This document shows positions 2,897 through 24,000 of a DNA stretch of 28,021 nt, piece by piece (within the stretch, counting starts at the first letter, position 1; each line of letters starts with the position of its first letter). Where the stretch lies: positions 1-28,021 of the IMG/VR virus record IMGVR_UViG_3300032225_001834; one strand, given 5' to 3'. Under the pieces are notes generated by a model. It saw only the letters and a list, made by a program, of their open reading frames with translations, searched no databases and had not been told where the DNA came from. The DNA comes from a virus. Lineage: Duplodnaviria > Caudoviricetes. The translations under genes and the position numbers were made by a program.

Positions 2897-2908
2897 CCAA
2901 CACAAACA
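2897..2908 (+). repeat. CCAACACAAACA motif, copy 1 (the only + strand copy)
   Basis: Exact 12-mer, 7 nt after the stop of the + strand acidic ORF and directly before the terminator. Confidence 0.9.
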
Positions 2909-2945
2909 AAAGGCCCCCGACTCAATTAAGAGCCGAGGGCCTTTT
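2908..2945. terminator. Bidirectional intrinsic terminator between convergent blocks
   Basis: AAAAGGCCC-CCGACTC-AATTAA-GAGCCGA-GGGCCTTTT: a stem with A and T tails, lying between + and - strand genes. Confidence 0.8.
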
Positions 2946-2956
2946 GCTTGTCCTAA

Positions 2957-3166
2957 TTAACTAGCTAACACACGCCCTGAGTTATCGGTTAACTCAAAGT
3001 ACTGAGTGTCAGAGTCTTCTATGTCTTCATAGCTATCTAACTCATCAGGATATGTATCACCAGCTAGCAGCTGCTCATATATATCCTTAGCATCCTCTGC
3101 GTTATCCGCATCGAATATTAGTGTGCCATTCTTTTGTACACTGAACATTACTCTGAACTTTGCCAT
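2957..3166 (-). CDS. Small acidic hypothetical protein (DpnD/PcfM-like pattern)
   Basis: RBS GGAGGAG; MAKFRVMFSV...FDADNAEDAKDI resembles the K-Y/F-x-V...EA.s.EeA pattern. Confidence 0.7.
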   Translation of the reverse strand: MAKFRVMFSVQKNGTLIFDADNAEDAKDIYEQLLAGDTYPDELDSYEDIEDSDTQYFELTDNSGRVLAS

Positions 3167-3304
3167 TTATACATCTCCTCCGCAGCTGCAATGACCGCAA
3201 CCACATTGTTTTGTTTCTAGTAGCGATAGTTGTTCACTTTCTTTTACTTCTTTTACTATATCGTTTACTGTCTTAAACGGCTGGACTGTTTCCATATCCA
3301 TCAT
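3167..3304 (-). CDS. 45-aa microprotein with a C-terminal Cys cluster CGCGHCSC (not in the ORF track)
   Basis: MMDMETVQPFKTVNDIVKEVKESEQLSLLETKQCGCGHCSCGGDV*; start overlaps the upstream stop (ATGA) and the stop abuts the next ATG. Confidence 0.7.
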   Translation of the reverse strand: MMDMETVQPFKTVNDIVKEVKESEQLSLLETKQCGCGHCSCGGDV

Positions 3305-3588
3305 GCGTCAGCCTTCCAACTTAGCTCACCTGCTAGGTGTGTAGGCTTTCCAGCATCATTTGTTGCCCCGATTACCATCTTGATTGATTTACGTGGGGTG
3401 TTATCAATCACGTACTGCTTTAGGTAACGCTTAGCTGCTGATGGATTAGCCCAAGCAGAATGTACCCCTGGACCATCAGATATAGCGCCACTAACACCCT
3501 CAGTAATAGTTAGGAGCCATGCTCCACCTTTTTCTACTGATGTGTTCTTGGTTAGTGCTGCATTTAGTGTTTTTGTTATTTTAGCCAT
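3301..3588 (-). CDS. Hypothetical protein
   Basis: RBS AGGGAGA, 95-aa ORF packed tightly in the leftward operon. Confidence 0.8.
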   Translation of the reverse strand: MAKITKTLNAALTKNTSVEKGGAWLLTITEGVSGAISDGPGVHSAWANPSAAKRYLKQYVIDNTPRKSIKMVIGATNDAGKPTHLAGELSWKADA

Positions 3589-3598
3589 TTGTTTCTCC

Positions 3599-3835
3599 CT
3601 ATAGCTTTATGTTTTCGTTGAACCCAACCTTTTTAAGATCTCGCAAGATATTCTTGCCAGCTCTCCTATCTCCCAAAGATTGTGGACCAAAGAAGACCAC
3701 CTTTTTTGTCTCTGGATTTACTACCTTTATATGGTGTTTACCTGGAGTACTACTGACTTCTAAGCCAGCTATCTCTAGCGCATCTACCAGTTTTCTTATT
3801 TCTTTAGTTTTTATTGGAAACGATGCAAATAGCAT
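3599..3835 (-). CDS. HicA-like toxin (dsRBD-like fold mRNA interferase), no adjacent antitoxin
   Basis: KEIRKLVDALEIAGLEV...GKHHIKV..P....V......D.R..KN...DLKKVG matches the actinophage HicA-like pattern, including the conserved His. Confidence 0.7.
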   Translation of the reverse strand: MLFASFPIKTKEIRKLVDALEIAGLEVSSTPGKHHIKVVNPETKKVVFFGPQSLGDRRAGKNILRDLKKVGFNENIKL

Positions 3836-3864
3836 TTCATCTATTTCCCCTTTCTTGCTGTAGA

Positions 3865-3934
3865 CTTAAGGATGTAAGCTCTCAAAGAACAGAGTTCACA
3901 CCCTCAAGGCCCCGGGATTGCGCCCCGGGGCTTT
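3865..3934 (-). other. Two adjacent intergenic RNA hairpins (18-bp imperfect stem plus a GC-rich 11-bp stem)
   Basis: Minus strand CTTGAGGGTGTGAACTCT/AGAGCTTACATCCTTAAG pairs with 3 G-U and 1 mismatch (3865-3908); AAAGCCCCGGG/CCCGGGGCCTT (3906-3934). Confidence 0.7.
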
Positions 3935-4130
3935 ATAGTTCTTCGATATTTTCCATGTATGCTTCTTCACCAGGTCTGTTGATATGTTTAACACTAACCC
4001 ATTCGCCAAGATTTCTGTCGTAGACTTTCAAACTCCACTCTCTGTTAGCTGGATCACTTTGATCATCTATTCTCCATTTCTTGAGCTTGACTCTGAACGT
4101 AACACGTAGGTCATATAGGTCTTTGTCCAT
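3933..4130 (-). CDS. Hypothetical protein
   Basis: RBS AAGGGGG, 65-aa ORF. Confidence 0.75.
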   Translation of the reverse strand: MDKDLYDLRVTFRVKLKKWRIDDQSDPANREWSLKVYDRNLGEWVSVKHINRPGEEAYMENIEEL

Positions 4131-4165
4131 GTATCCCCCTTCTCTCTATTCCATTCTAGCGGGAT

Positions 4166-4177
4166 TGTTTGTGTTGG
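4166..4177 (-). repeat. CCAACACAAACA motif, copy 2
   Basis: Exact 12-mer, 1 nt after the TGA stop at 4179-4181. Confidence 0.9.
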
Positions 4178-4178
4178 G

Positions 4179-4373
4179 TCAAATCTCTTCATCGCTATCG
4201 TTGTAGATATCTCCGAGCTCTGTCCAACCAGCTAGTTCATCTTCCTTCCATAGGTGAGACTCATCATTGGTTATGGTTTCCTCAGCCATGGCTTCTGCTT
4301 CTTGCTTGCTTTGTGCTTCAACCATGTAGTCATAGATTTTATGCTCATGGATTGTTACTTTATAGACTGACAT
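4179..4373 (-). CDS. Small acidic DpnD/PcfM-like protein
   Basis: MSVYKVTIHEHKIYDYMVEAQSKQEAEAMAEE; start placed at 4373 from RBS (GGAGA) spacing. Confidence 0.7.
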   Translation of the reverse strand: MSVYKVTIHEHKIYDYMVEAQSKQEAEAMAEETITNDESHLWKEDELAGWTELGDIYNDSDEEI

Positions 4374-4842
4374 ACTGTAGATCTCCATTCTCCTTGATGG
4401 TTGTTGCCCCTTCTGATCCGTAACATGCCTCGATTATTTTAGGATCAAGTTCGTTACGCATTGTCTTGAACTGGTCAACTGGCCATCCTGCATTAAATAC
4501 TCGTAGCAATAACTGTGCTAATGAGTAATCTTTATCCAGGCGTAGTGCATAGTTCAAGAGCATTGTTGATTTTTCTGTGTCATCTAGCTCATAGTAGTAA
4601 AGAGCTTGTAACGTTACAAATGGCACTAGATCTTCAGATGGAGCATGAACACACATATACTGCATGAACTTGATCCCCTCATCTAGTGACCATCTGAGTG
4701 GTAGACCCATAAGCCAGTCACGCACTTGTAGGTCTGAGTTAACGGCAAGAATAACTGCTTCCAGTTTTTCACCAGTTAACTCGATGTCATTGTTAAGTGA
4801 CTCTGTGATTAGTTCACAGGCTTGCTTGCGTGTTACTATCAT
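4360..4842 (-). CDS. DUF4192-like protein
   Basis: DLQVRDWLMG...AP....P..TL.A...Y........L..AL..D.DYSLAQLL......GWP resembles the actinobacterial DUF4192 C-terminal region; start MIVTRK at 4842 follows AAGGAAAAG. Confidence 0.65.
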   Translation of the reverse strand: MIVTRKQACELITESLNNDIELTGEKLEAVILAVNSDLQVRDWLMGLPLRWSLDEGIKFMQYMCVHAPSEDLVPFVTLQALYYYELDDTEKSTMLLNYALRLDKDYSLAQLLLRVFNAGWPVDQFKTMRNELDPKIIEACYGSEGATTIKENGDLQYVSL

Positions 4843-5302
4843 TTTTCTTTTCCTTTTTCTCAACTGAACGGAAGGTACCGTCTGGTGTAGGCCATCGGTA
4901 TGGCAGATCGTCTGGCACATCGAAACTGTAATAATCAGGATCTTTGCGCTTTAGATTAGATTTGTGGGAGCGATGGAACTGGCGTTTACCCCACCACCAC
5001 GGTCTCTCAAACGATTTGTCTGAGAAACTGTTTTTCTTCCACATCTCAATGATTTGGGCACGAACGTTATCTTCATACCCACGTTCTTCCCATTCGTTGC
5101 ACATAGCGAGTGTGTACTCCGCAAGAGCACCCTCATGACCTCGCCACATTACTGCTGCTGGGTGATTGCGCCATCCTTTAGTTAGACCTAAGTTAGCCCT
5201 GAGTATTTGCAACGCTTCAACACGTTGCTTACCCAGTCTCTTATTGTCTAAGGACTTAGCTGTTTTCTGTTCATCTGGCCAAGGTAGAAATGTATTAACC
5301 AT
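4814..5302 (-). CDS. Pyrimidine-dimer DNA glycosylase/endonuclease V-like protein (MSMEG_6728 family)
   Basis: TFLP......A..LD.KRLGKQRVEALQIL....GW.NHPA..MWRG.E.AL..Y..A.C.EW..RG..D and H.SH.SNL.RKDP.YY. Confidence 0.85.
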   Translation of the reverse strand: MVNTFLPWPDEQKTAKSLDNKRLGKQRVEALQILRANLGLTKGWRNHPAAVMWRGHEGALAEYTLAMCNEWEERGYEDNVRAQIIEMWKKNSFSDKSFERPWWWGKRQFHRSHKSNLKRKDPDYYSFDVPDDLPYRWPTPDGTFRSVEKKEKKNDSNTQASL

Positions 5303-5454
5303 CAGTCCTCCAATAGCATTGGTATCAAGTCCTCTGCTTTATGTTTGATTAACAGGTTGCGTACAGTTTCTTTATTTGCAGCATAGAGATCATCTTCTCG
5401 TTGCTTGAGCATTTCAGCCATCCATGTAGCGGGGTCAGTTTGTCGTAGACTCAT
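5302..5454 (-). CDS. 50-aa hypothetical microprotein (not in the ORF track)
   Basis: MSLRQTDPATWMAEMLKQREDDLYAANKETVRNLLIKHKAEDLIPMLLED*; ATGA and TGATG overlaps on its two ends. Confidence 0.75.
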   Translation of the reverse strand: MSLRQTDPATWMAEMLKQREDDLYAANKETVRNLLIKHKAEDLIPMLLED

Positions 5455-5642
5455 ACTAATGCTGACATTGTGATTTGATTATCTTGTGCCCATTCTTCTG
5501 GTTCAGAAATAGCTTCGATGGTTAGGTTAGCCCCACCATCTGCAATTTCATCTGATGCATACAAAAGCCACATTTGTGCGCTTTCGTAATCGTTGAAGGG
5601 ACCTATCAAAGTCTCAGTGAGACTATCGAATATGACGTGCAT
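5451..5642 (-). CDS. Small acidic hypothetical protein
   Basis: RBS AAGGAGAG; has the GPF..Y..A..W pattern common in small phage proteins. Confidence 0.75.
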   Translation of the reverse strand: MHVIFDSLTETLIGPFNDYESAQMWLLYASDEIADGGANLTIEAISEPEEWAQDNQITMSALV

Positions 5643-5653
5643 TTGCTCTCCTT

Positions 5654-5665
5654 TGTTTGTGTTGG
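5654..5665 (-). repeat. CCAACACAAACA motif, copy 3
   Basis: Exact 12-mer, 1 nt after the vWA gene's TAG and directly before the next RBS. Confidence 0.9.
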
Positions 5666-5666
5666 A

Positions 5667-7517
5667 CTAGCGTCCACGCTTTTTGATTGCACTCATTACT
5701 ACAGATTTAGCGAATGGGAGAAGATCACGAGCCGTTTTAATTCGACCATAGACTTCAGCACCATGACGCCAGCTCTTTTCTTCCATACCGCGATCTTCGT
5801 AGAACTGCATATCCCTGTCATCCATGATTAGAGTCATGACTGTTAGGATTCCACGTTTTGAGATACGTTCAATAACCTCATCGTTTTTCTGAGCATCAAA
5901 CGCACCGTCGGTAATCATGAACAACATCTTATTCTTCTTACGAGAAGCCATCAGAAGTTGTTCGGCAGCAAGCAATGTGGAGTATGGATTAGTTCCACCA
6001 TTGCCATAGATGAACTTGTAACGTGTTCTGTCTGCAAGTTCGTTACGACCATAAGCTAGTTCAGCTTTATCATCGAATGCATAGACTGTAACCGGTGCAC
6101 CAATTTGTTCTAGAGCACGTTTAATAGTCCAGCATGCAACTGATGCGTGCATATCGTTACGTCCACTAGCCATAGAGCCAGATCTATCCACCATGATTAC
6201 GGCTTCAACATCGGCACCATCACTGCCTTCATCCCAACGGTCAAAGGCTTGATCAATCTCACAGCCTCTGACAGCACGCATTACATTGAGCTTACCGCTA
6301 GCTTCTTCACGATGCCACATCGGTTCACATTCATCACGCAAGCGTTCTAGCTCACGTGCAAATTTACGATATAGCACCATAGATTCAGCAGGCACGGTAG
6401 TTTTGTCAAACCTACCTTGCTTCAATGTATCTTCGTGTTTACCATCACCACCTACAATAACTTTCTGCTTCGTCTTAATATCCTGCTGAACGTCTTTACG
6501 TTCTAGCACTGTCTGGATAGCATCCTCAAGCATTTCTTGTACGTTGTCTGGTATACCACCAACACTTTCTACATGGCCTTCACCAGCTTGCATACCGCTT
6601 GGTTTATCACCTTGTTCAGCTTGCAGTTCTTCTCTAAGTGCTAAAGCCTCTTGAGCTGTTTTTGGTTGCGGTGGTTTGTTTGTGTTGGAGGTTGGATTAG
6701 GTTTAGCCTGCACACTTGTAGACTCTGCCTTGCCCATACCACCAGCACGTTGTGCATCCTTCTCCTGGGCTTTACCAGGTTCGGGACGACCTTTACCTAC
6801 TGGGTCACGAGAACTACAACCGTTAGGACCTTGAGGCATCTTAGGAAGATTAAGCTTCCGCAATACCTCATCGTTCCAACGCTTGATTAGTTCTTGAGCT
6901 TTGTCATAATCACGTGGAAATGCCAACACACGATATTGATCTACAATATCTGCGATGGTTGGTATCAAACTAGGTTCAGCAAACATATCTCTGAACGCTT
7001 GTCTGATTTCTATTGGTAGATATCTACGACCACGCACAAGCATATAGTTACCTATACCTTCTTCTGGCGTGTTAGACAACCACCTAGCAATTGTGGCTGT
7101 TAGATACGGTGCAATAGATGGATAGCGAGCAATTAACAAAGTCTCGATACGCTGGTCTTCCAGCATATTGGCTGACTCCATGTAGTCATTCTCTACCACC
7201 CACTTCATGAACGTTGTTCCACGACGTGGCGTATACAAGTGATGAGCAAGCTCGTGATAGTTGAGGCCAGTGACTTGAGTTAGTGTCTCAAGATCCATGT
7301 CCTCAATCTCATTAGCATTAAAGGTAATAGAAGCACCGTCAGACCAGGCTGGTGCTGGACCATCTTCCACTACGTTAATGATGACCGGATCTCCAGAGAG
7401 AACACGATCAGCTTGTTCATACACACGGCAAAGAGCGTTGAGTCGCACAGATCTTAACTGTGTTTCTTCATCTCTCTCTTGTCTGTACCACTGTTCATCT
7501 AGGTCTTCTTGAAACAT
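5667..7517 (-). CDS. Metallopeptidase-like (HExxH) plus von Willebrand factor A domain protein (CobT-like MoxR partner)
   Basis: N-terminal YHELAHH...N.LEDQRIE, low-complexity linker, SGKLN, MIDAS motif VDRSGSM, GGT and ITDG. Confidence 0.9.
   Translation of the reverse strand: MFQEDLDEQWYRQERDEETQLRSVRLNALCRVYEQADRVLSGDPVIINVVEDGPAPAWSDGASITFNANEIEDMDLETLTQVTGLNYHELAHHLYTPRRGTTFMKWVVENDYMESANMLEDQRIETLLIARYPSIAPYLTATIARWLSNTPEEGIGNYMLVRGRRYLPIEIRQAFRDMFAEPSLIPTIADIVDQYRVLAFPRDYDKAQELIKRWNDEVLRKLNLPKMPQGPNGCSSRDPVGKGRPEPGKAQEKDAQRAGGMGKAESTSVQAKPNPTSNTNKPPQPKTAQEALALREELQAEQGDKPSGMQAGEGHVESVGGIPDNVQEMLEDAIQTVLERKDVQQDIKTKQKVIVGGDGKHEDTLKQGRFDKTTVPAESMVLYRKFARELERLRDECEPMWHREEASGKLNVMRAVRGCEIDQAFDRWDEGSDGADVEAVIMVDRSGSMASGRNDMHASVACWTIKRALEQIGAPVTVYAFDDKAELAYGRNELADRTRYKFIYGNGGTNPYSTLLAAEQLLMASRKKNKMLFMITDGAFDAQKNDEVIERISKRGILTVMTLIMDDRDMQFYEDRGMEEKSWRHGAEVYGRIKTARDLLPFAKSVVMSAIKKRGR
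6677..6688 (-). repeat. CCAACACAAACA motif, copy 4 (intragenic)
   Basis: Exact 12-mer in the vWA linker, read as S-N-T-N-K. Confidence 0.9.
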
Positions 7518-7526
7518 ATATTCTCC

Positions 7527-8936
7527 TTAGACTGTGGTGGATTGTGTTGCTACCCATTGTGCTAACTGGGTGTCAATGTCAACATCTGCTTCTTTCTCTA
7601 GTTCAACTGGTACTTCAATACCGAAGTCAGCTTTGATGTTGTGTTCGTGTGTTTGGAATACCAAACGCACAGATGCTTGCTCGTCTGATGAGAAGTGAGC
7701 AATGAAGTTTTCAACTGCAAACTCATAGCCAAAGTTCGGATTCTTAATGAACTTTTCGATTTCCATGAGCATGTTAGTTGAGATAGGTGTTTCGTATTGG
7801 CCCTTGGCTGCTTCAGCACGCAATTGCTTGACTAACAATAGCAATGACTTAGAAGAGACAAGCTTTGACTCGACTGCATCGTCGTAATCCCACATCAACT
7901 GAATGTCAAAGCGGTTACGCATTGCAAAGTTGAGCGGAGTAGTACCAATGTAGTCTGGGTTCATGGTTGCAAAGATTGTTAAGTCTTTGTGAGCCACGAT
8001 TGTTTCACCCATGTGGTCGAGCAGAGTAATACTACGACGACCATCGGTGAGTGGATATAGAGTGGTATAGATCTTAGGACTGATAAAGTTCATCTCGTCC
8101 AATAGAAGAACACCACCGTTGCGTACTACGTCAGTGACTGGGCCATCAATCCACCCATAGCCACCAACACCGTTAGGAATAAAGCCACCGAATAGCTGGC
8201 GAGATTCCATAGATGCGTTACCAGATACTGTTGCCATACGAAGGCCGCGTTCTGCAGCCCACGCTTCAACAGCTGTAGTCTTACCGGGACCGGTTGGGCC
8301 GTAGATAAGAACGTTGATATGATCAGCACGTGCTTCGTCAAAAGTTGTGAAGTCTGAGACTCCATAAACCTTACGATGCACATAGCGTTCAGCCAAATGA
8401 ATTGGAGGAACAGTTGCCAATGACACAGCAAATGACGGCGATGCGGCCTGTTGTACAGGGGCAGCGTCCTCGTTTGTTTGTGTTGGAACAGTTACTACCA
8501 ACGGAACTGTCGTGCTAGTTGAAGCACGATTATCTGTTACGTATGTTTCCAATGAATCATCTCCCATATTGATTTGTTCGTAGAAGTTACAGAGAACATC
8601 TACTAGTGGTGTTGTATCTGTTGTTGGTTCAGCCTTGGAATGCTTATCGCATGCCTTGGTTCCCAACACTGGGGAGTATCCTTTAGAAGTTATGGCACGT
8701 GCGTCTGCTGGTGTGACGTACACACCTACAGGAGTTCGTGTCAATATCTCTTCGTCTTGGATCTCAGTTGTTAGTTCGTCTAGAGTAGTTTCCTCCCACT
8801 TGTTGTGGGGGCCCTTTGTTCCATCCGTTAACCTTGAGTACACACGCACATTGTTATCATGTGGCGTAATGAGAACTTGACGACGCTTGCCATCAAGGCC
8901 CTCACTGTACGACTCAGTAAACATTGCTATGTCCAT
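7527..8936 (-). CDS. MoxR-family AAA+ ATPase (CbbQ/NirQ/CobS-like)
   Basis: Walker A GPTGPGKT, Walker B LLLDEMN, ATMNP.Y.GT..LN.A..NRF; adjacent to the vWA gene. Confidence 0.92.
   Translation of the reverse strand: MDIAMFTESYSEGLDGKRRQVLITPHDNNVRVYSRLTDGTKGPHNKWEETTLDELTTEIQDEEILTRTPVGVYVTPADARAITSKGYSPVLGTKACDKHSKAEPTTDTTPLVDVLCNFYEQINMGDDSLETYVTDNRASTSTTVPLVVTVPTQTNEDAAPVQQAASPSFAVSLATVPPIHLAERYVHRKVYGVSDFTTFDEARADHINVLIYGPTGPGKTTAVEAWAAERGLRMATVSGNASMESRQLFGGFIPNGVGGYGWIDGPVTDVVRNGGVLLLDEMNFISPKIYTTLYPLTDGRRSITLLDHMGETIVAHKDLTIFATMNPDYIGTTPLNFAMRNRFDIQLMWDYDDAVESKLVSSKSLLLLVKQLRAEAAKGQYETPISTNMLMEIEKFIKNPNFGYEFAVENFIAHFSSDEQASVRLVFQTHEHNIKADFGIEVPVELEKEADVDIDTQLAQWVATQSTTV
8475..8486 (-). 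repeat. CCAACACAAACA motif, copy 5 (intragenic)
   Basis: Exact 12-mer in the T/P/A-rich linker of the AAA+ gene, read as P-T-Q-T (a different frame from copy 4). Confidence 0.9.
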
Positions 8937-8959
8937 TTGTTACCTTTCTCTTGTTTGGT

Positions 8960-9196
8960 TTAATCGTCACCTAGAAGTCTGTCTTCCATAACGGTGGCGA
9001 AAGTGAACATGGCTTGCTTTTCTACAGGCCATTCTGTTATTAGCTCAAACAATATGTCATGTTTAGTTGCCTTCTCCATGACCTTCTTGAACTTATCAAC
9101 TGCAAAGTCCAAGAATTCTTCTTGTTCTTCTTCTGGAATCATGTCAAGAGTAAACTCTTGTTGTTCCATATCTTCATCGTCACATTCGTGACACAT
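8960..9196 (-). CDS. Small acidic hypothetical protein with an N-terminal CxxC
   Basis: RBS AAAGGA; MCHECDDEDMEQQEF...; strongly acidic. Confidence 0.8.
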   Translation of the reverse strand: MCHECDDEDMEQQEFTLDMIPEEEQEEFLDFAVDKFKKVMEKATKHDILFELITEWPVEKQAMFTFATVMEDRLLGDD

Positions 9197-9215
9197 ATTG
9201 TTCCTTTCTCTAAAT

Positions 9216-9448
9216 GTTTGGTTGGCTTACCCCCGATGCCGGCAGGGAAACATGGCATGCCATCAACTTTCTCCTCAACTGTCGCTACAACATTGTTACA
9301 CTCAATGCTGCACTAGTATTCTTGACATTGGTCTATAGGGGGCGAAGTCTATGCCTAGAGGTGGGCTTAGCCAACCAAACGTGGGTGTGTAACTAACTAA
9401 CGGAATGGGGTTTTCGTTCACATAGAACTCCCGCCCCTAGTCGTTAGC
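9216..9448 (-). ncRNA. Putative structured intergenic RNA (~230 nt)
   Basis: Perfect 12-bp inverted repeat (9216-9227 and 9369-9380) encloses an inner stem TGCAGCATTG/CAATGTTGTA; a separate 5' stem GCTAACG/CGTTAGT has inner GGGG/CCCC and GTTC/GAAC; no convincing ORF. Confidence 0.45.
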
Positions 9449-9736
9449 CTATAGTTGCCACCCGGTTGAGACGGTTACAGAACCAGTGACATCATATTGA
9501 TCCCAACTGACGTTCTTTTGCCAACGGTCTATGATTACTCTTCGACCGCTTTCCCGTGTAGATTCGTAGCAACCAAGATATGACTCATGGTAATGCTCGT
9601 AATTTTTACGGCGGGTATTGTAAATCTCCAAGTACTTTTGATGTGCTTGGATGCGACGACCGCAGTTACCGCATGAGTTGATATCTTGTATCAATTCGTC
9701 TCGTGACGGCAGTTCATCTATATCCTTTTCGGACAT
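9449..9736 (-). CDS. Hypothetical protein, possible Zn-binding (CxxC...H....C)
   Basis: RBS AAAGGG; CGNCG...YHESYLGC. Confidence 0.8.
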   Translation of the reverse strand: MSEKDIDELPSRDELIQDINSCGNCGRRIQAHQKYLEIYNTRRKNYEHYHESYLGCYESTRESGRRVIIDRWQKNVSWDQYDVTGSVTVSTGWQL

Positions 9737-9756
9737 TGGCTACCCTTTCTCGGGTT

Positions 9757-9768
9757 TGTTTGTGTTGG
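9757..9768 (-). repeat. CCAACACAAACA motif, copy 6
   Basis: Exact 12-mer directly abutting the TAA stop at 9769-9771. Confidence 0.9.
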
Positions 9769-10269
9769 TTAGTATTTGCCTTGAGCTCTTTCAAGCTCTA
9801 CTACTTGACTAGCACTGGATGTGCTGTTCAAAATAAGGGACTTGAACATTTCACTGTCCATCTTCTTAGATAGTGCGTTAGCAACTGTGGCTAAGAAGTT
9901 CCCTGATGTGCCTGGCTTATTACGTAACACTGTACGTGTAGCCAGAACAGTTTCTCCCCATGCAAATGACAGTGGGGCTAGGTACTCGCTGTATGTTTTA
10001 ATGGTGTTACCCATTTCATCAGGAGTAGATGCAATTGCAGCAGAGAATAGTTGTACAACATTCTTTGCTTCGTTTCCATCACATGCTGTGACAAGATGGT
10101 TGATGATTGCATCTCTGAAGTTGGTAGATATCTCGGAAATCTGTACTAGATTTACGGGCATCATTCCACCTTTAAGCAACTCAGCAGCAACGTCAGGGTC
10201 TGTTGTGTCCCTGGTCGTATAAGCTCCTATTGAGATGCTTGGATCATACTGTAGTTGTAGGTCCAGCAT
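9769..10269 (-). CDS. Hypothetical helical protein, possibly a divergent DUF4192-like paralog
   Basis: NFRDAII...LA.LSFAWGE..LA pattern; RBS AAAGGA. Confidence 0.7.
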   Translation of the reverse strand: MLDLQLQYDPSISIGAYTTRDTTDPDVAAELLKGGMMPVNLVQISEISTNFRDAIINHLVTACDGNEAKNVVQLFSAAIASTPDEMGNTIKTYSEYLAPLSFAWGETVLATRTVLRNKPGTSGNFLATVANALSKKMDSEMFKSLILNSTSSASQVVELERAQGKY

Positions 10270-10993
10270 AAGCGGCCACGATCCTTTCTAGATCGGTTAA
10301 TGGTTTTCTTACTATGTTGCCATTCTCTACCTTGATAGGCGAACCATCCCAAGCTAGAGAAACTCGTTTACTGCCGTAGTCACGTTTACCCGTGCCACTG
10401 CATGAGTAACAGTGTTGACTACGCTTCATTGTGTGTCCGTGTCCTGTAAACCCATGTTCACAAGGAAGAGCATGCCATCTACTGTATGCGTTAGTTTGTA
10501 CAGCTTCTGGGTGCTCTGGACATGAATAGACATTGTTTTCGTTTAGATTTCCGTTCCAACATGTTGGTGGATTGCAATAACCATCTACTTTACCTGTTTG
10601 ACTACACATACGACAACCTTGTATTTTTTGTGGGGTTATCTTTGCGTTTTGTTCATACAGTTTGAATTGAAAGTTGCGTTGTACAACTTCAATAGCTGTG
10701 TATTTATAGATAGTAAAACGAACACTATAAGCACGTAGAGGATCCCACGAGCCTCCCCAAGCTGTTGTTACTCTGCCTGGAGACTGTAGTGTTTTAGTAT
10801 TGTCTGGATGAATAGTAATAAGTGGGTAATTATTAATCCACGGCATTACTATCTGAATATCACCAGACTTGTTAAATTTGTTGGCATACTGAATACGATA
10901 GCCACGGTCATAAAGAGTACGTTCATACTTCTTACGGCCGTTAGCCAAATAGTCTTGCCATTCAGCATACGTTATATGTGATCGCCAGCTCAT
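10244..10993 (-). CDS. Hypothetical protein with DnaJ-type CxxCxGxG-like zinc-finger repeats
   Basis: CRMCSQTG and CYSCSGTG flank a further C/H-rich insert; RBS GGAGG. Confidence 0.8.
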   Translation of the reverse strand: MSWRSHITYAEWQDYLANGRKKYERTLYDRGYRIQYANKFNKSGDIQIVMPWINNYPLITIHPDNTKTLQSPGRVTTAWGGSWDPLRAYSVRFTIYKYTAIEVVQRNFQFKLYEQNAKITPQKIQGCRMCSQTGKVDGYCNPPTCWNGNLNENNVYSCPEHPEAVQTNAYSRWHALPCEHGFTGHGHTMKRSQHCYSCSGTGKRDYGSKRVSLAWDGSPIKVENGNIVRKPLTDLERIVAAYAGPTTTV

Positions 10994-11295
10994 GTTGCCT
11001 CCACTGTTTCAAATAAGCCTACAGGGGTTGGGTCCTCCAAGTCAACATACTGGAACTCGATAAGGCGTTCGCGTGTGCGTTCGAGTGTTTGTGTTGGTTC
11101 CTCCCACCATGATGATGTGAGAGATATCACAGATGATTTAGGCTTGAGCAACTTAAGTGCCAGGCCCACACCATCCATAAGACCACTGTTATATGCGCGA
11201 GCATTTTGATGCTCTTCGAAGTGTAGATCTTCTTGAGCTTCAATGATTGCACGCTCAAGGATTTCTACTATCTGCTTTTTCTTTTTCTTACGCAT
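10990..11295 (-). CDS. Hypothetical protein
   Basis: Likely start MRKKKKKQIVEILE at 11295; the longer listed ORF overlaps the upstream gene by more than 200 nt. Confidence 0.7.
   Translation of the reverse strand: MRKKKKKQIVEILERAIIEAQEDLHFEEHQNARAYNSGLMDGVGLALKLLKPKSSVISLTSSWWEEPTQTLERTRERLIEFQYVDLEDPTPVGLFETVEAT
11086..11097 (-). repeat. CCAACACAAACA motif, copy 7 (intragenic)
   Basis: Exact 12-mer, read as P-T-Q-T. Confidence 0.9.
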
Positions 11296-11548
11296 CAACT
11301 TCAGCCTTGTTGTTGTAGCCAAATGGGCCGTCGTATACCTTGCCAGTCTTCCAATGAGGAATTGACTTGTGGTTCCAACGTCCACCTGCTTTCTTCCAAG
11401 CCTCACGCTTAGCATCATTTTCAGGACTGCGTCCATTGATGTGTGTGAAGTTGGTCTTAGGTGGTTGAGCGGGGCCAGGATTCTTTTTAGAAGCCTTGCC
11501 ATTAGGACGGTTGTCATTGCGACCGTTGCCTTTTGATTTTACTGCCAT
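11288..11548 (-). CDS. Basic Lys/Asn-rich hypothetical protein
   Basis: RBS GAAGGA; MAVKSKGNGRNDNRPNGKA... Confidence 0.8.
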   Translation of the reverse strand: MAVKSKGNGRNDNRPNGKASKKNPGPAQPPKTNFTHINGRSPENDAKREAWKKAGGRWNHKSIPHWKTGKVYDGPFGYNNKAEVDA

Positions 11549-11570
11549 TTATCTATCCTTCCGGCTTAGA

Positions 11571-11792
11571 TTAGTTACTGCGGATATTTTCCACAGAACC
11601 ATACAGCGTATCAATGCCATCATTCCATAGCATCAATGCCTCCTTCTTAGTACAGCCATGAAACAACTGTGCTTCGAGAAGGAATAGTAGTTTTTCTGTT
11701 GTATTGGTAAATGTAGGGGAGGATACTTCTTTTTCTTGCCATACAAGTTTGTTATTACTATCTTGTACGTAGTTACCTACTATCTCTGTCAT
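11571..11792 (-). CDS. Hypothetical protein
   Basis: 73-aa ORF in the operon, with a short overlap with the upstream gene. Confidence 0.7.
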   Translation of the reverse strand: MTEIVGNYVQDSNNKLVWQEKEVSSPTFTNTTEKLLFLLEAQLFHGCTKKEALMLWNDGIDTLYGSVENIRSN

Positions 11793-12024
11793 TTGTATGC
11801 CAATCTACTAGTTGATGAGTAGTACCCCATTTACTATAGGGTTTATCTATGATGTCGTATATCTTCCACCATCTATACCCAGCCTTGGGCATAGTCTCTT
11901 GGTTCTCATACTTGATCTCATACTTCAATGCTTTATGCAATGGGTATGAAGATAGATGATTGCACCAATTAGCAAACCACCTGAGTGGCAAGATATTGGT
12001 CTTATGTTCTGGCTCTGTTATCAT
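11773..12024 (-). CDS. Trp/Tyr-rich hypothetical protein
   Basis: Strong RBS AAAGGAG; 83 aa. Confidence 0.8.
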   Translation of the reverse strand: MITEPEHKTNILPLRWFANWCNHLSSYPLHKALKYEIKYENQETMPKAGYRWWKIYDIIDKPYSKWGTTHQLVDWHTNDRDSR

Positions 12025-12052
12025 TGGGTCTCCTTTCTTTAGAGATGAATGA

Positions 12053-12085
12053 TGAGCAGTTTAGCCTTGTCATACTCAGGACAGG
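12053..12085 (-). promoter_or_regulatory. Compact H-type RNA pseudoknot in the 5' leader
   Basis: Minus strand CCTGTC-CTGAGTAT-GACAAGG-CTAAAC-TGCTCA: stem 1 is TGTC/GACA (plus CC/GG), and loop TGAGTA pairs with downstream TGCTCA. Confidence 0.55.
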
Positions 12086-12144
12086 AGTTCTTTTACCTCA
12101 GGAAGAACTTTAGAAACCAACCGGCATTACCCGTTATTAAATTG

Positions 12145-12558
12145 TTAGAGGCAATTGAAGAAATCATTATCCAGCATGCTGGCATTGAAGGTTTCTCCGG
12201 CCATAATTGATACAGAACGAATCTGCTTTTCAATTCTGTCAACCATAGTGCGTGCAGGTTCAAAACCTGGTACTTCTGGTTGATCGGCATCCACAACAAT
12301 ACTAAAATCAATTCTGATTTGTTTCTTGTTGTTATATACACGTCGCCATTCCTGGTCTTCTGTGCTATTGGCTTTTAGAAATGCGATAGCTGCATTAGCA
12401 ACTGCTTTATTGTATGCAACTATCTCTTTGTCAAACGCAGCTTTTTTAGCTGTGTATTCTTTTAACTCTTTATCATACTTGGCTGTTTCTTTTTTCAAAC
12501 TAGCATTAAGCTGTTTGAGAGCGTCAGCCTTGTTGATAAGGTTTGTTACTCTAGCCAT
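12145..12558 (-). CDS. Coiled-coil hypothetical protein
   Basis: Start MARVTNLINK at 12558 after RBS AAGGGAGG; A/K/E-rich helix. Confidence 0.8.
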   Translation of the reverse strand: MARVTNLINKADALKQLNASLKKETAKYDKELKEYTAKKAAFDKEIVAYNKAVANAAIAFLKANSTEDQEWRRVYNNKKQIRIDFSIVVDADQPEVPGFEPARTMVDRIEKQIRSVSIMAGETFNASMLDNDFFNCL

Positions 12559-12589
12559 TGCTGGCCTCCCTTTATCTAGTGGTGCGGTT

Positions 12590-12601
12590 TGTTTGTGTTG
12601 G
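12590..12601 (-). repeat. CCAACACAAACA motif, copy 8
   Basis: Exact 12-mer in the leader, 31 nt upstream of the ATG at 12558. Confidence 0.9.
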
Positions 12602-12849
12602 GGCGTGTCACCACATGCCCTACATGTTTTATAGACCACATGCTCTGTGTCTTTTGGTTGGCACTACATTATTTCTTTCGGTCATCATGCGTAGTCAGTA
12701 TCGTGATACACCCACGAAGTTGTATCGAGGATAAAGGGTCCGGGCCATGGGGTCGGTTACATCTAATTGCGTAGGCTATCAACCTGTTGCTTTCGATGCC
12801 TTAGCTCACGCCATTCCTCACCCGCCGTGTCAGAGCCGGTAGTGTTCCT

Positions 12850-12991
12850 TGGGTTGTCTATACAACCCAGTAGAAACAGGCACGTGCCTCCTGTTCCTAC
12901 TGCATCGTATAGATAAAAAGATAGGCCGGGGAGAGCCTACCCTCATGGGCTCATCCCCGACCTATGGCTTGGTGGATTCCGGCACCAAGCC
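12850..12991 (-). other. Cluster of three long RNA hairpins
   Basis: 24-bp stem at 12857-12913 (3 G-U, 1 mismatch on the minus strand), 17-bp stem at 12921-12965 and 9-bp stem at 12966-12991; an alternative hairpin TGGGTTGT/ACAACCCA at 12850-12869. Confidence 0.7.
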
Positions 12992-12997
12992 CCCTCA

Positions 12998-13300
12998 CTA
13001 AATGCTAGTTAGTTGCCACCCATTACAATAAGAATCATCTGTCTTTGGATGCCACTTGTTAGTTGTTGTCTCAGGCACATCTACCCAGCGAATAAATTCG
13101 TGGGCACACCTGTGACACAGCATGAATTTAATAGGAGGTTCAAAGACATTATCTATGAACATCATGTAGCCACCATCTATGGTGACCTCTAGTGCTACAG
13201 GTATCTCAGAGTCCATAGACAATGGCTTGAATACCTGTGGCTTGTTGCACTTACTGCACTCAACTATGGTAATAGTTGATCCACTTAGGTTGGTATCCAT
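12998..13300 (-). CDS. Zinc-finger hypothetical protein (CxxC...CxxC)
   Basis: ECSKC...GGYMMFID...LCHRCA; RBS GGAGA and TGATG overlap. Confidence 0.8.
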   Translation of the reverse strand: MDTNLSGSTITIVECSKCNKPQVFKPLSMDSEIPVALEVTIDGGYMMFIDNVFEPPIKFMLCHRCAHEFIRWVDVPETTTNKWHPKTDDSYCNGWQLTSI

Positions 13301-13434
13301 CAGCTGGTCTCCAACAGTTCATAAATAAGTCTGAGCATGTGTAACTCAGCCTGTATCTGTGTTATCTGTACCTGTATTGCTGTTACTTGATTAGATATCT
13401 CAAGCAACTGGTTTAAGCGTTCTTCGTCAAGCAC
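13300..13434 (-). CDS. 44-aa coiled-coil microprotein (not in the ORF track)
   Basis: GTG start, MLDEERLNQLLEISNQVTAIQVQITQIQAELHMLRLIYELLETS*; fills the gap between whiB and the next gene. Confidence 0.65.
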   Translation of the reverse strand: MLDEERLNQLLEISNQVTAIQVQITQIQAELHMLRLIYELLETS

Positions 13435-13675
13435 TCTTCTTCCTCTCTGCTAGATGTGACATAGGCGATACAAAGCCAATGCCAAAGTATTCCTTGCCAC
13501 CCCAGATACCATACAGCCCTGGTGTGTTCTCAGCGTATTCACGACACGCTGAAAGTAATGGGCAAGCCTGGCATGTAGCCTTGGCTATCTTCTTGTTTGG
13601 ATCACCCTTACCAACAGGGAAGAATATCTCCCGGTCAGTTTGGGCGCATAACTGTGAACCATTCATGTAATACAT
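13427..13675 (-). CDS. whiB: WhiB-family Fe-S transcription regulator
   Basis: LCAQTD.EIFFP.......AK..C..CP....C..YA......GIWGG: four Cys plus the G[IV]WGG turn. Confidence 0.93.
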   Translation of the reverse strand: MYYMNGSQLCAQTDREIFFPVGKGDPNKKIAKATCQACPLLSACREYAENTPGLYGIWGGKEYFGIGFVSPMSHLAERKKSA

Positions 13676-13774
13676 TTACTGCCTCCAGTCATAGTCTTCT
13701 TGGTCAATCTCATACTGCTTCTTGATTAGGTATGCAACAACAGCCATACCTACAATAAACCCTACAACGAACAC
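13676..13774 (-). CDS. 32-aa single-pass membrane microprotein (not in the ORF track)
   Basis: GGGGGAG then GTG; MFVVGFIVGMAVVAYLIKKQYEIDQEDYDWRQ*; stop abuts the whiB ATG. Confidence 0.65.
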   Translation of the reverse strand: MFVVGFIVGMAVVAYLIKKQYEIDQEDYDWRQ

Positions 13775-13938
13775 ATCTCCCCCTCTCTCAGCAATGCAAC
13801 TGCCAAACTTTCGGGGGATTTTTCGGGGGAAACCTGTGTAACTACACGCTTTACATAGTGTGTAGAGGAGAAGATAACAAGAGTCCCGTTAGGTAACTTA
13901 CTAGTCACCTTGATAGTGCTATCAGTAGTGCTTATCAT
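13762..13938 (-). CDS. 58-aa hypothetical microprotein (not in the ORF track)
   Basis: ATGA overlap with the upstream gene; MISTTDSTIKVTSKLPNGTLVIFSSTHYVKRVVTQVSPEKSPESLAVALLREGEMCSL*. Confidence 0.45.
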   Translation of the reverse strand: MISTTDSTIKVTSKLPNGTLVIFSSTHYVKRVVTQVSPEKSPESLAVALLREGEMCSL

Positions 13939-14072
13939 TGGTGTGCCTCAGCAACAGCGATACCTAGAGGTGTAGGTGTAAAGATAGCCTCTAGATTCTC
14001 ATTGTATGAGACAGCGATAAGACCCTTGAGTAATAGAGATTTGAGGGTCTCATCTAGTTCTTCTTCGCTCAT
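13935..14072 (-). CDS. 45-aa microprotein resembling a winged-helix recognition helix and wing (not in the ORF track)
   Basis: MSEEELDETLKSLLLKGLIAVSYNENLEAIFTPTPLGIAVAEAHQ* (L..KGLI...f..T..G pattern); RBS CAGGT. Confidence 0.65.
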   Translation of the reverse strand: MSEEELDETLKSLLLKGLIAVSYNENLEAIFTPTPLGIAVAEAHQ

Positions 14073-14090
14073 TCTTACCTGCTTTCTACT

Positions 14091-14185
14091 CCCATAAGGA
14101 GTGAGAGATACATAGGGAATACCGACCTACACGCTCACTAAGAAGCCTCAGTCTGTTGTCCTATGTATCCTTCGCCCCCTGTGGA
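14091..14185 (-). other. Long intergenic RNA hairpin
   Basis: Core GATACATAGG/CCTATGTATC extends to about 26 bp with 4 G-U and 3 mismatches on the minus strand. Confidence 0.7.
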
Positions 14186-14217
14186 TAAATAAAAAATGGG
14201 CAAAATTTTTTGGGGGA

Positions 14218-14421
14218 TTACTGGCGACCTGATGATTTACCATTCTTAAGATCATCACTATCCTTAAGAACATAGGCAAAGCCCTGCTTAGGCATAAGAA
14301 TAAGACGGAACTCCTCTTGACGAGGAGATAACGCTTTGGCTACACATTGCTTAGCCATGCAATAGTTGATACCTGCCTCATAACGTGGCTGAGGCACAGG
14401 CTGTCCGCAATAGATACACAT
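14218..14421 (-). CDS. DksA/TraR-like C4 zinc-finger protein
   Basis: CIYCGQPVPQPRYEAGINYCMAKQC resembles C..CG..I...Rl.a....C..C; RBS AAGGGA. Confidence 0.7.
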   Translation of the reverse strand: MCIYCGQPVPQPRYEAGINYCMAKQCVAKALSPRQEEFRLILMPKQGFAYVLKDSDDLKNGKSSGRQ

Positions 14422-14423
14422 AA

Positions 14424-14591
14424 CTATCCCTTCTTGTATAGTGTTGCAGGAACAGAAATAAAGTGCTCATCTATCATTACAACATAGCCCTTAGAGGCTA
14501 AGTGTTTAACGTAGCAATCCCAGCAAGATTTATAGCCGTCATCATAGACAGCCTCACCTGCAGTGATAGTCTTCTTACAATCTGGACACAT
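14424..14591 (-). CDS. 55-aa C4 zinc-finger microprotein (not in the ORF track)
   Basis: RBS GAGGAG; MCPDCKKTITAGEAVYDDGYKSCWDCYVKHLASKGYVVMIDEHFISVPATLYKKG*. Confidence 0.75.
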   Translation of the reverse strand: MCPDCKKTITAGEAVYDDGYKSCWDCYVKHLASKGYVVMIDEHFISVPATLYKKG

Positions 14592-14627
14592 AAGTGTCTC
14601 CTCTCTGTTAGTTGATACCTGATTACA

Positions 14628-14698
14628 GATAAGCCACCAGCCTCACAGCCTGGTGTTACAACCATACGGCTATAACGCTGTGAGGCCAGTGGCCTATC
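14628..14698 (-). other. Long intergenic RNA hairpin with an asymmetric bulge
   Basis: 22-bp outer stem GATAGGCCACTGGCCTCACAGC/GCTGTGAGGCTGGTGGCTTATC plus 9-bp inner stem GTTATAGCC/GGTTGTAAC; fully paired only if G-U is allowed on the minus strand. Confidence 0.75.
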
Positions 14699-14783
14699 AT
14701 GGACATAGTGGTACTCAGGACTCCAACCCCATGCGTGGCATACCACAATGCTACGTCGCTGCGTAGGTGTCATGGCAACTGCA

Positions 14784-14853
14784 GCCCCTATCTATGCCCA
14801 CAGGTATAACTATGGACATAGATAGAGGCGGGGACACATAAGTGCCCCCGCCT
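14784..14853 (-). other. Two overlapping RNA hairpins downstream of the first leftward gene
   Basis: 20-bp stem at 14784-14829 (3 G-U) and 12-bp GC-rich stem at 14826-14853 (1 G-U), both fully paired on the minus strand. Confidence 0.75.
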
Positions 14854-14869
14854 ACTACCTCAGGAGAGA

Positions 14870-15418
14870 TTAGGCGTTAACCTTCTCCTTCTCCTGAACC
14901 TTGTTGCTCTCATACTGAGAGAGCAACTTCTCGAACTTGACCTTTAGCGTCATTACTAATGCGTCAGACGCAACAGTAGGGACGATAATGGTCTTAGCGA
15001 CCTTGTCGAACTGGTCGCTTAGTGCCTCGAGTTGGGCAACAATGGCTGTGCCAGCCATAGCGTCTGCCATTGCCATTGACTTCTTCTCGTCAATAGCGAT
15101 AGCGGATACACGGGCTAGTTCGCCCAGCATTGCCTCGCGTGTGGTTTGCACACGGATAGAGGCATAGTTGTTGGCAATGAAGGTGATGTTCATAGTCTTG
15201 GCATCTACGCCAGACTTATGGACATACCACGCAGCGTAGGCTGTGCCTACATTCTGCTTGCCCTTCAGACCCACGAGCAGGTGCTCGGGGGTAACAGCAG
15301 GGTCAGCAGCATACTCCGCTACTATCTCGGAGATGTGCCAGCCCTTCTTGTCATTGAAGCGGTCACACAAGGCGGTAATGCGTGCCTGTGTGCTTTCAGT
15401 CAACTGTGCTAGTGACAT
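14870..15418 (-). CDS. Hypothetical Ala-rich protein, first gene of the leftward arm
   Basis: 182-aa ORF; visibly more G/C-ending codons than the rightward-arm genes. Confidence 0.85.
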   Translation of the reverse strand: MSLAQLTESTQARITALCDRFNDKKGWHISEIVAEYAADPAVTPEHLLVGLKGKQNVGTAYAAWYVHKSGVDAKTMNITFIANNYASIRVQTTREAMLGELARVSAIAIDEKKSMAMADAMAGTAIVAQLEALSDQFDKVAKTIIVPTVASDALVMTLKVKFEKLLSQYESNKVQEKEKVNA

Positions 15419-15669: not shown

Positions 15670-15755
15670 TTAATAATTGAGGCAGTGGCTTGCTCTATCT
15701 ATGATCATAGTTTTACTGGAGTAAAAATTGGCGGGGAGCTGTACAATCAGAATCT

Positions 15756-17002: not shown

Positions 17003-17074
17003 TGATCTTTAGCTCAGCGGCAGAGCGGGGCACTGTTAATGCCTAGGTCCCTGGTTCGATCCCAGGAAGGTCAG
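17003..17074 (+). tRNA. tRNA-Asn (GTT), CCA not encoded
   Basis: Acceptor TGATCTT/AAGGTCA, D-arm GCTC/GAGC, anticodon arm GGGCA-CTGTTAA-TGCCT, T-arm CCTGG-TTCGATC-CCAGG, discriminator G. Confidence 0.95.
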
Positions 17075-17121
17075 CTAGTATGTAGTTACACCAGTAACTG
17101 CCCGCCGAAAGTTTGGAAATT

Positions 17122-17842: not shown

Positions 17843-18409
17843 ATGACAACGTTAGTAGCAATACAAGGTGACGGCTGGTCTGTTATTGGATGTGACTCAC
17901 GTGCGTCTAGTGAAGATGGTCGCTATATGGATTTAGCAACTCCAAAGATTGTTGATAACAATGGAGTTCTAATTGCTGTATCTGGTGCCTCCCGCGGTGG
18001 AAACATTACCCAGTTTGGTTGGAAACCGCCAAAACCTCGTGCAAGTGAAAACCTAGATGTTTTTGTAACTAATCGTTTTATCCCACAGATGCGTGAAGCA
18101 TTTATCAAAGCTGGTTATGATGCCAAAGATGACGGCGATGCAGCAGGCCATGACTCTAACCTCATAGTTTCTATTCGTGGTGTCCTCTACCCTATCTTTG
18201 AAGATTACTCTTGGGATCGTGAAGCCCGCAACGTTTACTATGCCGGTTCTGGTGGGGATGTAGCTCTTGGGGCACTTGAGGCTTTAGAGTACACTAAGGC
18301 TAAAACGCCAGCAGCTGCCGAAAAAATATTGCGTAAAGCTGTAGAGATTGCCTGCAAGCACGATATTTATTCTGGTGGAAAGATCATTACACACATACAA
18401 ACGGCCTAA
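17843..18409 (+). CDS. Proteasome beta-subunit/HslV-like Ntn threonine protease
   Basis: N-terminal MTTLVAI...DSR (catalytic Thr exposed by Met removal), PKI, GSGG..ALGAL, DIYSGG. Confidence 0.88.
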   Translation: MTTLVAIQGDGWSVIGCDSRASSEDGRYMDLATPKIVDNNGVLIAVSGASRGGNITQFGWKPPKPRASENLDVFVTNRFIPQMREAFIKAGYDAKDDGDAAGHDSNLIVSIRGVLYPIFEDYSWDREARNVYYAGSGGDVALGALEALEYTKAKTPAAAEKILRKAVEIACKHDIYSGGKIITHIQTA

Positions 18410-23447: not shown

Positions 23448-23701
23448 TGGCTAAGTCACCAGCATGGCAACGTAAAGAGGGCAAGAATCCTAATGGCGGC
23501 TTAAACGCTAAAGGACGTGCTTCAGCTAAAAAAGAAGGCCATGACCTTAAAGCACCCAGCAAAGATCACGATAACAAGCGTCATAAGTCTTTCTGTGCCC
23601 GTATGAAGGGTATGAAAGCTAAGAACACTGGAAGCAAAGCTGCTAAAGATCCAAACAGCCGTATCAACAAATCACTTCGTGCTTGGGATTGCACCTGCTA
23701 G
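23447..23701 (+). CDS. DUF6321-like basic phage protein
   Basis: MAKSPAWQRKEGKNP.GGLNAKGRAS...R.KSFCARM.GM.....AKDPNSRINKSLRAWDC; RBS GAGGAG. Confidence 0.8.
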   Translation: MAKSPAWQRKEGKNPNGGLNAKGRASAKKEGHDLKAPSKDHDNKRHKSFCARMKGMKAKNTGSKAAKDPNSRINKSLRAWDCTC

Positions 23702-24000
23702 TGGCTACAAAGAAAAAAGTAGTAGCTGGCGGTAAAGAGTATAAAGGCTCTGCCGCTAATGGCGGCCGTAAAATTATTGTTGAGCACTATAAAGATAAAG
23801 ACGGTAATTGGCACACCACGTCTAAGAACGCTGCTCGTGCTAAGTATGAGAAGAAGACTGGTAAGAAGTTACCACGAAATGTTGACGTGGATCATAAGAA
23901 TAACAACCACGATGATGATTCTACCGGAAACCTGCGCCCGCTTTCTCACGGTAAGAATACCGCTAAAGAAAACAAGCGCAGGGCCGGCAAGAAGTCTTAG
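23701..24000 (+). CDS. Basic HNH-motif protein
   Basis: GTG start overlapping TAG; GKKLP..VDVDHKNNN..DD...NL..LSH..N. Confidence 0.8.
   Translation: MATKKKVVAGGKEYKGSAANGGRKIIVEHYKDKDGNWHTTSKNAARAKYEKKTGKKLPRNVDVDHKNNNHDDDSTGNLRPLSHGKNTAKENKRRAGKKS

Follow-up and report, generated by a model that had tools for sequence, protein, structure and literature searches.

The closest described counterparts of the element reported here are the single-strand interruptions in the DNA of lytic phages of the tf/LUZ24, T5/BF23 and phiKMV-like groups. According to the available parts of the published accounts, phage tf has two convergent transcription units and terminal repeats of 186 bp, and it carries 14 nicks, which fall on an exact and asymmetric 9-mer (PMC3517423); the nicks of phiKMV-like phages are located in the non-coding strand (PMC3517423), and those of T5 and BF23 are confined to one strand (PMC10644984). 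A second relevant system is the stoperator array of cluster A phages, which is characterized, as far as the partial sources go, by an asymmetric site of 13-14 bp, a gp71-type repressor, a temperate genome and 20-30 sites genome-wide, mostly intergenic. Here we analyse a stretch of 28,021 nucleotides from a virus of the Caudoviricetes (IMG/VR record IMGVR_UViG_3300032225_001834; the whole stretch is called the window), in which the 12-letter word YCAACAYAAACA is repeated about every 1,300 bases along a leftward gene arm, facing the direction in which the genes are read.

With the described interruptions, the array in this phage and its relatives (the uncultured lake phages) shares an exact asymmetric word, some 8-14 copies, a strand bias, similar positions in relatives and a lytic phage, and with tf in particular the convergent units and short terminal repeats. 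Its word is longer than the tf site (11-12 bp compared to 9) and flips with transcription rather than being confined to a single genome strand. The copies are regularly spaced and linked to terminator stems, and a candidate enzyme can be named; the array is known here as a sequence pattern. We tentatively read the word, at somewhat less than an even chance, as an oriented recognition site for strand-specific nicks that would likely be made by a phage-encoded HNH_3 nuclease. Neither this nuclease nor nick sites were among the options listed in the original prediction, which had been made from the letters of the window.

An oriented, evenly spaced word along the leftward arm

Eight exact copies of CCAACACAAACA are present in the window, one on the forward strand at 2897 followed by seven on the reverse strand, compared to a mean of 0.02 and a maximum of 1 in 100 shuffled sequences. 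Near-matches with one mismatch are absent from the window and a single one with two mismatches lies at 21716. Six of the copies are prolonged to ...AAA. The coefficient of variation of the gaps is 0.16, and none of 20000 random placements was as regular. The recount is in agreement with the original prediction regarding the list of copies, the extension, the gaps and the location of three copies directly behind a stop codon (offsets of 1, 1 and 0 nt at 4166, 5654 and 9757). The intragenic copies are translated as SNTNK in the VWA gene and as PTQT both in the AAA gene and in an open reading frame (ORF) of 175 aa.

The same pattern was found throughout the closer relatives. Sense copies occur in the leftward arm at 50 of 50 related loci, with 2 to 12 copies per arm, and exactly one inverted copy marks the convergence at all 41 loci with enough downstream DNA; the AAA genes of the 50 loci are 51-94% identical, and some loci are near-identical to one another. 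At 20 loci with more distant AAA genes the array was not found. In 22 arms, 121 exact sense copies were counted together with 39 one-mismatch copies (2.7 expected) and 27 two-mismatch copies (28 expected). Within the word, change is tolerated at positions 0, 2, 6 and 11, and positions 1, 4 and 10 never vary. With up to one mismatch, 160 copies in these arms are in sense and none is in antisense. The spacing test gave p<0.05 in 22 of 24 relatives, namely in all with at least four sites, while the remaining two hold only three sites. Genomes contain 3-15 copies, chiefly in one arm, and in 15 whole records the majority of copies lies within the leftward arm. The first 1-7 kb of the arm are free of copies, and some lineages retain just two distal sites. 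Outside the arm, extra copies within coding sequence were observed in both orientations in 4 of 9 genomes (6 in sense, 0.28 expected; 4 in antisense, 0.75 expected).

In the AAA linker the copy has been kept by 27 of 28 genes, and the codons there are invariant; at other conserved four-fold columns, the same codon is used in 62% of cases. In two lineages a Pro-to-Ser change in this linker leaves the word unchanged. Among 85 site clusters, which were grouped by flank identity and are only roughly independent, 49 (58%) are coding and fall into all three frames (23/21/5), whereas 23 of the 36 non-coding clusters lie at most 8 nt from a stop codon. The earlier proposal that selection at the intragenic copies acts on the nucleotides is supported by these data. 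Since the linker codons are frozen and a tail of two-mismatch variants is missing, the word, as judged from the sequences, is a selected, nucleotide-level, transcription-oriented site with a specific reader.

Two complete genomes outside the main clade carry the word as well: G031 has the same array with the same inverted copy ahead of the stem, and G030 has 8 copies genome-wide, 7 of them in sense. Three 11-mer copies were found in G022. The word was not found in a sister clade whose genes stand in the same order. In a five-gene tree, G030 and G031 group as sister to this word-less clade, which places the word in three deep lineages; it is thus probably an ancestral trait that disappeared a single time. 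In the sister clade (L406, L407, L416, L425, L427, L431, L475), other short words and palindromes are repeated just past the RNR gene. Outside the phage group, no kilobase-spaced array was found among the 124 viral and 117 metagenome hits examined, which came from 5 of 64 (viral) and 2 of 64 (metagenome) parts of the collections; multi-copy viral hits were tight clusters, likely coding repeats. The published literature within the scope of the search, to which supplements and most subscription papers did not belong, gave no description of the array, and a search with the letters of the word gave no phage paper, as judged by title, among the 30 of 117 matches listed.

Table 1. Positions in the window of the word copies, the arm that carries them and associated features.
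Feature	Position	Strand	Remarks
Inverted terminal word copy	2897..2908	+	sense to the RNR operon; 7 nt past its last stop codon, 3 nt ahead of the terminator stem
Convergent terminator hairpin, RNR operon and leftward arm	2912..2941	.	between both units
Leftward arm with word array	2957..15418	-	early timing and a DNA end close to 15.5 kb suggested by how cultured relatives are laid out
Word copy	4166..4177	-	1 nt past a stop codon; within the spacer of a sigma-A-like promoter (4182-4153)
Word copy	5654..5665	-	1 nt past the stop codon of the VWA gene
Word copy	6677..6688	-	linker of the VWA gene (SNTNK)
Word copy	8475..8486	-	linker of the MoxR-type AAA gene (PTQT); 27/28 orthologs, codons fixed
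Word copy	9757..9768	-	immediately past a stop codon
Word copy	11086..11097	-	within the 175-aa ORF (PTQT)
Word copy	12590..12601	-	intergenic; most arm-proximal, ~3 kb inward of the arm start
Candidate reader, small basic HNH_3 nuclease (~96 aa)	23683..24000	+	~1.5 kb upstream of the terminase gene

Nuclease and repressor candidates for the reader

In T5-like phages, the gene for a nicking enzyme lies near that for the terminase. In the lake phages, only one of the ~85 core genes of the complete relative G001 tracks the presence and absence of the word, and this gene codes for the HNH_3 nuclease. Each of the 11 word-bearing relatives that were screened and are complete or nearly so has it (nine main-clade genomes, G030 and G031), and it was not detected in the word-less genomes G017 and G028 (complete), G025 (87%), G020 and G021 (partial) or in the Streptomyces phage LuckySocke. 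G022, which bears the word but is too partial, was left out of this comparison. The orthologs of G030 and G031 are 59-64% identical, above most neighbouring genes, and 4 of 4 orthologs pass the Pfam cut-off for HNH_3. The start codon of the gene is uncertain, with homology starting near 23701, and no close solved structure of the protein was found. The co-occurrence suggests that the word is likely read by the HNH_3 nuclease.

In the mechanism that we envisage, the nuclease would cut a single, fixed strand wherever the word occurs, leading to packaged DNA with site-specific single-strand interruptions. As the copies face transcription, the nick would be placed in the non-template strand. Once the DNA has been injected, such nicks would form swivels at intervals of 1-2 kb along the arm that is transcribed first, and RNA polymerase would not be stopped by them; the first kilobases of the arm would need no nick because of the free DNA end there. 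At the inverted copy, it would be the template strand of the early transcript that is nicked, directly behind the terminator stem, and this would make a hard stop at the convergence. Later, host ligase would seal the nicks, so that stray late-gene copies of either orientation would be harmless. A nick in the non-template strand would thereby explain the polarity, the indifference to frame, the spacing, the empty stretch at the DNA end, the inverted copy and the tolerance of copies in late genes. Selection that appears to act at the DNA level, indifferent to translation, is consistent with nicking. The complete scenario, in which a tiny HNH nickase pre-cuts the packaged genome, with non-template nicks every ~1.3 kb as swivels and one template-nick stop behind the terminator, is possible but doubtful.

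Several points weigh against the nuclease and its nicks. The co-occurrence of gene and word amounts to one loss event, as the word-less lake genomes form one clade, to which only a distant outgroup is added. Small HNH genes are mobile, and a match could arise by chance among ~85 genes; the gene of a ribbon-helix-helix (RHH) protein passed the first subtraction and then failed. With ~96 aa the protein is small for a specificity of 11-12 bp, and nicking enzymes typically nick sites of 3-7 bp according to the part of the literature available (PMC8845596). In G030 and G031 the HNH gene does not adjoin the terminase gene. The orientation of the word flips with transcription and is not confined to one genome strand, the copies ahead of terminators in the late region would be superfluous, and a host-encoded reader is possible.

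The original prediction had likened the array to the stoperators of phage L5. As a description of the pattern this is a fair analogue: the sites of L5 gp71 and of TipsytheTRex, as partly available sources describe them (PMC9283540, PMC6550527), are likewise asymmetric 12-13-mers that occur many times, read in the sense of transcription and lie close to the ends of genes and in one case inside a promoter. The analogy does not extend to the genes, and the promoter overlap, that of the copy at 4166, is the only orthologous one and limited to one subclade. As had been noted for the window, a repressor or integrase is not visible, and both a gp71 homolog and an integrase were also not found in the relatives examined: for gp71, phmmer gave no hit and the best tblastn match had an E of 0.79 in nine genomes and the window, while integrase and partition genes were not found in 97 and 93 of the 145 ORFs of G001 scanned, the remainder being covered by orthologs in the window. 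Furthermore, the word is invariant across deep lineages, whereas stoperators, as described, diverge with their repressors, and over half of its clusters are intragenic, with regular spacing and 3-15 copies. Because the repressor, the lysogeny genes and the site distribution all differ, the array, on the genomic evidence, does not belong to the cluster A stoperator systems, although it may function in a similar way.

A working of this kind, in which a later-made phage protein would bind the word on DNA, block elongation and one promoter and so shut the early arm, appears unlikely to us. It would suit an asymmetric, sense-oriented word that often stands at gene ends and overlaps a conserved promoter spacer. 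However, it does not explain why the start of the arm lacks sites, why certain lineages retain two distal sites only and why sense copies occur within late genes, and the promoter persists in L036 where the word carries two mismatches. Gene subtraction against the word-less sister clade first pointed to a 52-aa RHH protein resembling the omega repressor (L020:15919-16077 (-), equivalent to G001 34919-35077), the gene of which is inserted between that of a SNF2 helicase and the next gene. All of the 14 main-clade genomes and G022 have it, its N-terminal arm and ribbon are invariant, and its best match in the PDB is omega (E 6e-4). Omega of pSM19035 binds asymmetric heptads (PMC4627068, available in part), and the word contains a CAC-centred core. 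Yet omega, in this description, needs contiguous runs of heptads at promoters, while the words are single and more than 1 kb apart; no word lies near the RHH gene, and the protein was rejected as reader since it is missing from the complete, word-bearing G030 and G031. At the RHH position of the main clade, G030 has an ORF (59300-59570) that by eye is acyl-carrier-protein-like.

Further candidates were discarded because they are shared with word-less genomes. This concerns a MerR-type winged-helix-turn-helix (wHTH) core protein, whose model matched MerR/BldC/RacA folds weakly (E>=0.035), a SpoVS protein that is equally present in word-less genomes, and WhiB. The latter had been named as a possible reader in the original prediction; its gene is real (13427-13675). 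For the KTSC-like and wHTH-like readers proposed there, no match to a KTSC or wHTH family at E<=0.001 was obtained among the 53 ORFs of the window. The SpoVS/Alba-like core gene (93 aa; L020:6725-7006 (-)) is 87-95% identical across the clade, and so conserved like the capsid gene. A 78-aa ORF at 3599-3835 (-), presumably HicA-like as judged by eye, matches an unnamed PHROG and is present in 7 of 8 relatives and absent from the sister clade.

Flanks, hairpins and terminators

The surroundings of the word are asymmetric too. On the 3' side, the flank is rich in C and poor in T and shows peaks at +14 (48/85) and +16 (42/85) in all frame classes; the 5' flank is nearly flat. Of 33 hairpin-adjacent copies, many of them mutually related, 27 are located 3-4 nt from the last G-C pair, unrelated hairpins included. 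Pairs of word and terminator also occur past a gene of the rightward unit and in the late region, a copy stands directly past the capsid gene, and in some lineages the word stands in place of the A-tract at another terminator. No enrichment of hairpins was found at the internal copies.

The hairpin register and the flank are best accounted for by a one-way stop for antisense RNA polymerase, in which the G/T strand would be a stacked pause or termination tail that guards both arms from read-through at the convergence. The distance of 3-4 nt is where a terminator tail belongs (PMC8060035, in the part available), and the substitution of an A-tract fits this role. The G/T strand also agrees with t-3 g-2 Y-1 G+1 and a G at -10, matching the two flank peaks, and with TTNTTT at -11 to -6, Y-1/G+1, when the flank has A at +12 (about 57%), the internal copies being without hairpin. 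We nevertheless regard this function as distinctly unlikely. Pause signals are degenerate, yet the word has no tail of near-matches, the internal copies lack hairpins, and copies with the G/T strand in sense are in excess in late genes (4 compared to 0.75 expected). In addition, NusG of M. tuberculosis is independent of TTNTTT in the account partly available, and the hairpin register may be a matter of economy, with the word doubling as a reverse tail.

Copies just ahead of terminator hairpins at several independent loci, and the one directly past the capsid gene, could alternatively indicate a signal on the sense transcript, such as an antitermination reload site of boxA type or a mark for cleavage or protection, that an RNA-binding protein of host or phage would read. 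The sense polarity, the distribution across all of the G030 genome of its eight copies, seven of them in sense, and the highly conserved SpoVS/Alba-like core gene are in line with this. However, 58% of the clusters are inside coding sequence, the predicted accessibility of the word is 0.77 compared to 0.74 in transplanted controls, SpoVS does not follow the word, and antitermination at the convergent terminator would drive antisense RNA into the arm, so that we consider an RNA signal quite improbable.

Other roles were rejected. As a promoter element the word lacks an upstream consensus in the 85 clusters. A guide-RNA circuit does not agree with the A-to-G change of the terminal copy in L014 and L066, which has no matching change in the internal copies, nor with a rod-shaped RNA in the arm, the arms of which co-vary independently of the word. 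A second subsite one turn away was not supported, with 8/85 near-matches and thus no better than another offset.

The rod-shaped RNA is located at 9216-9380 (-), and its closing arms of 12-15 bp co-vary over ~15 relatives; they resemble the word here, though not in every relative. A GC hairpin at 3870-3934 (-), present in only 2 of 14 relatives checked, is followed by a stretch that we take to be boxA-like. Just upstream of the first copy, 12640-13000 (-) is non-coding with several stable hairpins (z -3.6 for 12560-13000). Near the divergent region, the palindrome CTATGATCATAG and variants of it occur at 15699-15710 and 14804-14827; it has 3-9 copies in 7 of 9 clade genomes and none in G007, G010 and three sister genomes.

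The phage and its cultured kin

The window is a fragment of a myovirus genome of ~100 kb. It contains genes for RNR, a queuine-transglycosylase-like protein, a MoxR-type AAA protein, VWA, WhiB, Hsp20 and the terminase; in the complete relative G001 these are joined by PolA, RecA, DnaB, sheath and capsid. WhiB, which was not found in G016, serves as a marker of actinobacterial phages according to a source available in part (PMC10202952), and for this reason the host appears to be a lake actinobacterium. A search of the window against Rfam at the gathering score returned only the tRNA-Asn at 17003-17075, and no RNA family at the word. A proteasome/HslV-type subunit is encoded at 17843-18409, adjoining Hsp20.

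The closest cultured kin by capsid are the Streptomyces phages BRock, LuckySocke, Alone3, GiJojo and pSt2308 (72-73% identity), which resemble it in layout, with a leftward arm that is short and lies at a terminal repeat. In LuckySocke this arm is ~10 kb long and begins at a terminal repeat of ~344 bp; BRock, described as a virulent myovirus (PMC7453282), has a terminal repeat of 221 bp and no lysogeny genes. From these layouts and repeats we infer that the arm in the window is early and begins near a DNA end at about 15.5 kb. LuckySocke is the one cultured relative that was scanned; exact copies of the word are absent from it, and neither the HNH nor the RHH protein gave a match there. The arm itself as a long terminal repeat was rejected in view of flat contig depth over 1-20 kb in the best run, which is weak evidence as it comes from contigs only, and of the repeats of the cultured kin, which measure only 221-344 bp.

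The inferred DNA end bears on a further possibility, a polar mark for a possibly host-encoded DNA motor, similar to Chi, KOPS or Ter. The copies point inward from this end and face each other at the convergence, and the same word is found in three deep lineages. However, the vicinity of the end, which is where protection would be needed, is free of copies, kilobase-spaced arrays were not found among the hits examined outside the phage group, and the hairpin register is left unexplained. A motor mark is therefore very unlikely in our view.

According to the available part of a report from 2012 (PMC3517423), it was not known what purpose site-specific nicks serve in phage DNA. If the word is indeed a nick site of the HNH_3 nuclease, the nicks of the T5, tf and phiKMV types would gain an enzyme and a testable purpose. 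The natural series of genomes shows where such a word was gained, where it has been retained and where it is avoided, and it offers a small enzyme and a single 12-mer that can be tested without phage culture. If one of the rival explanations is true instead, the word remains an undescribed control signal that dictates codons in a large group of freshwater actinobacterial phages.

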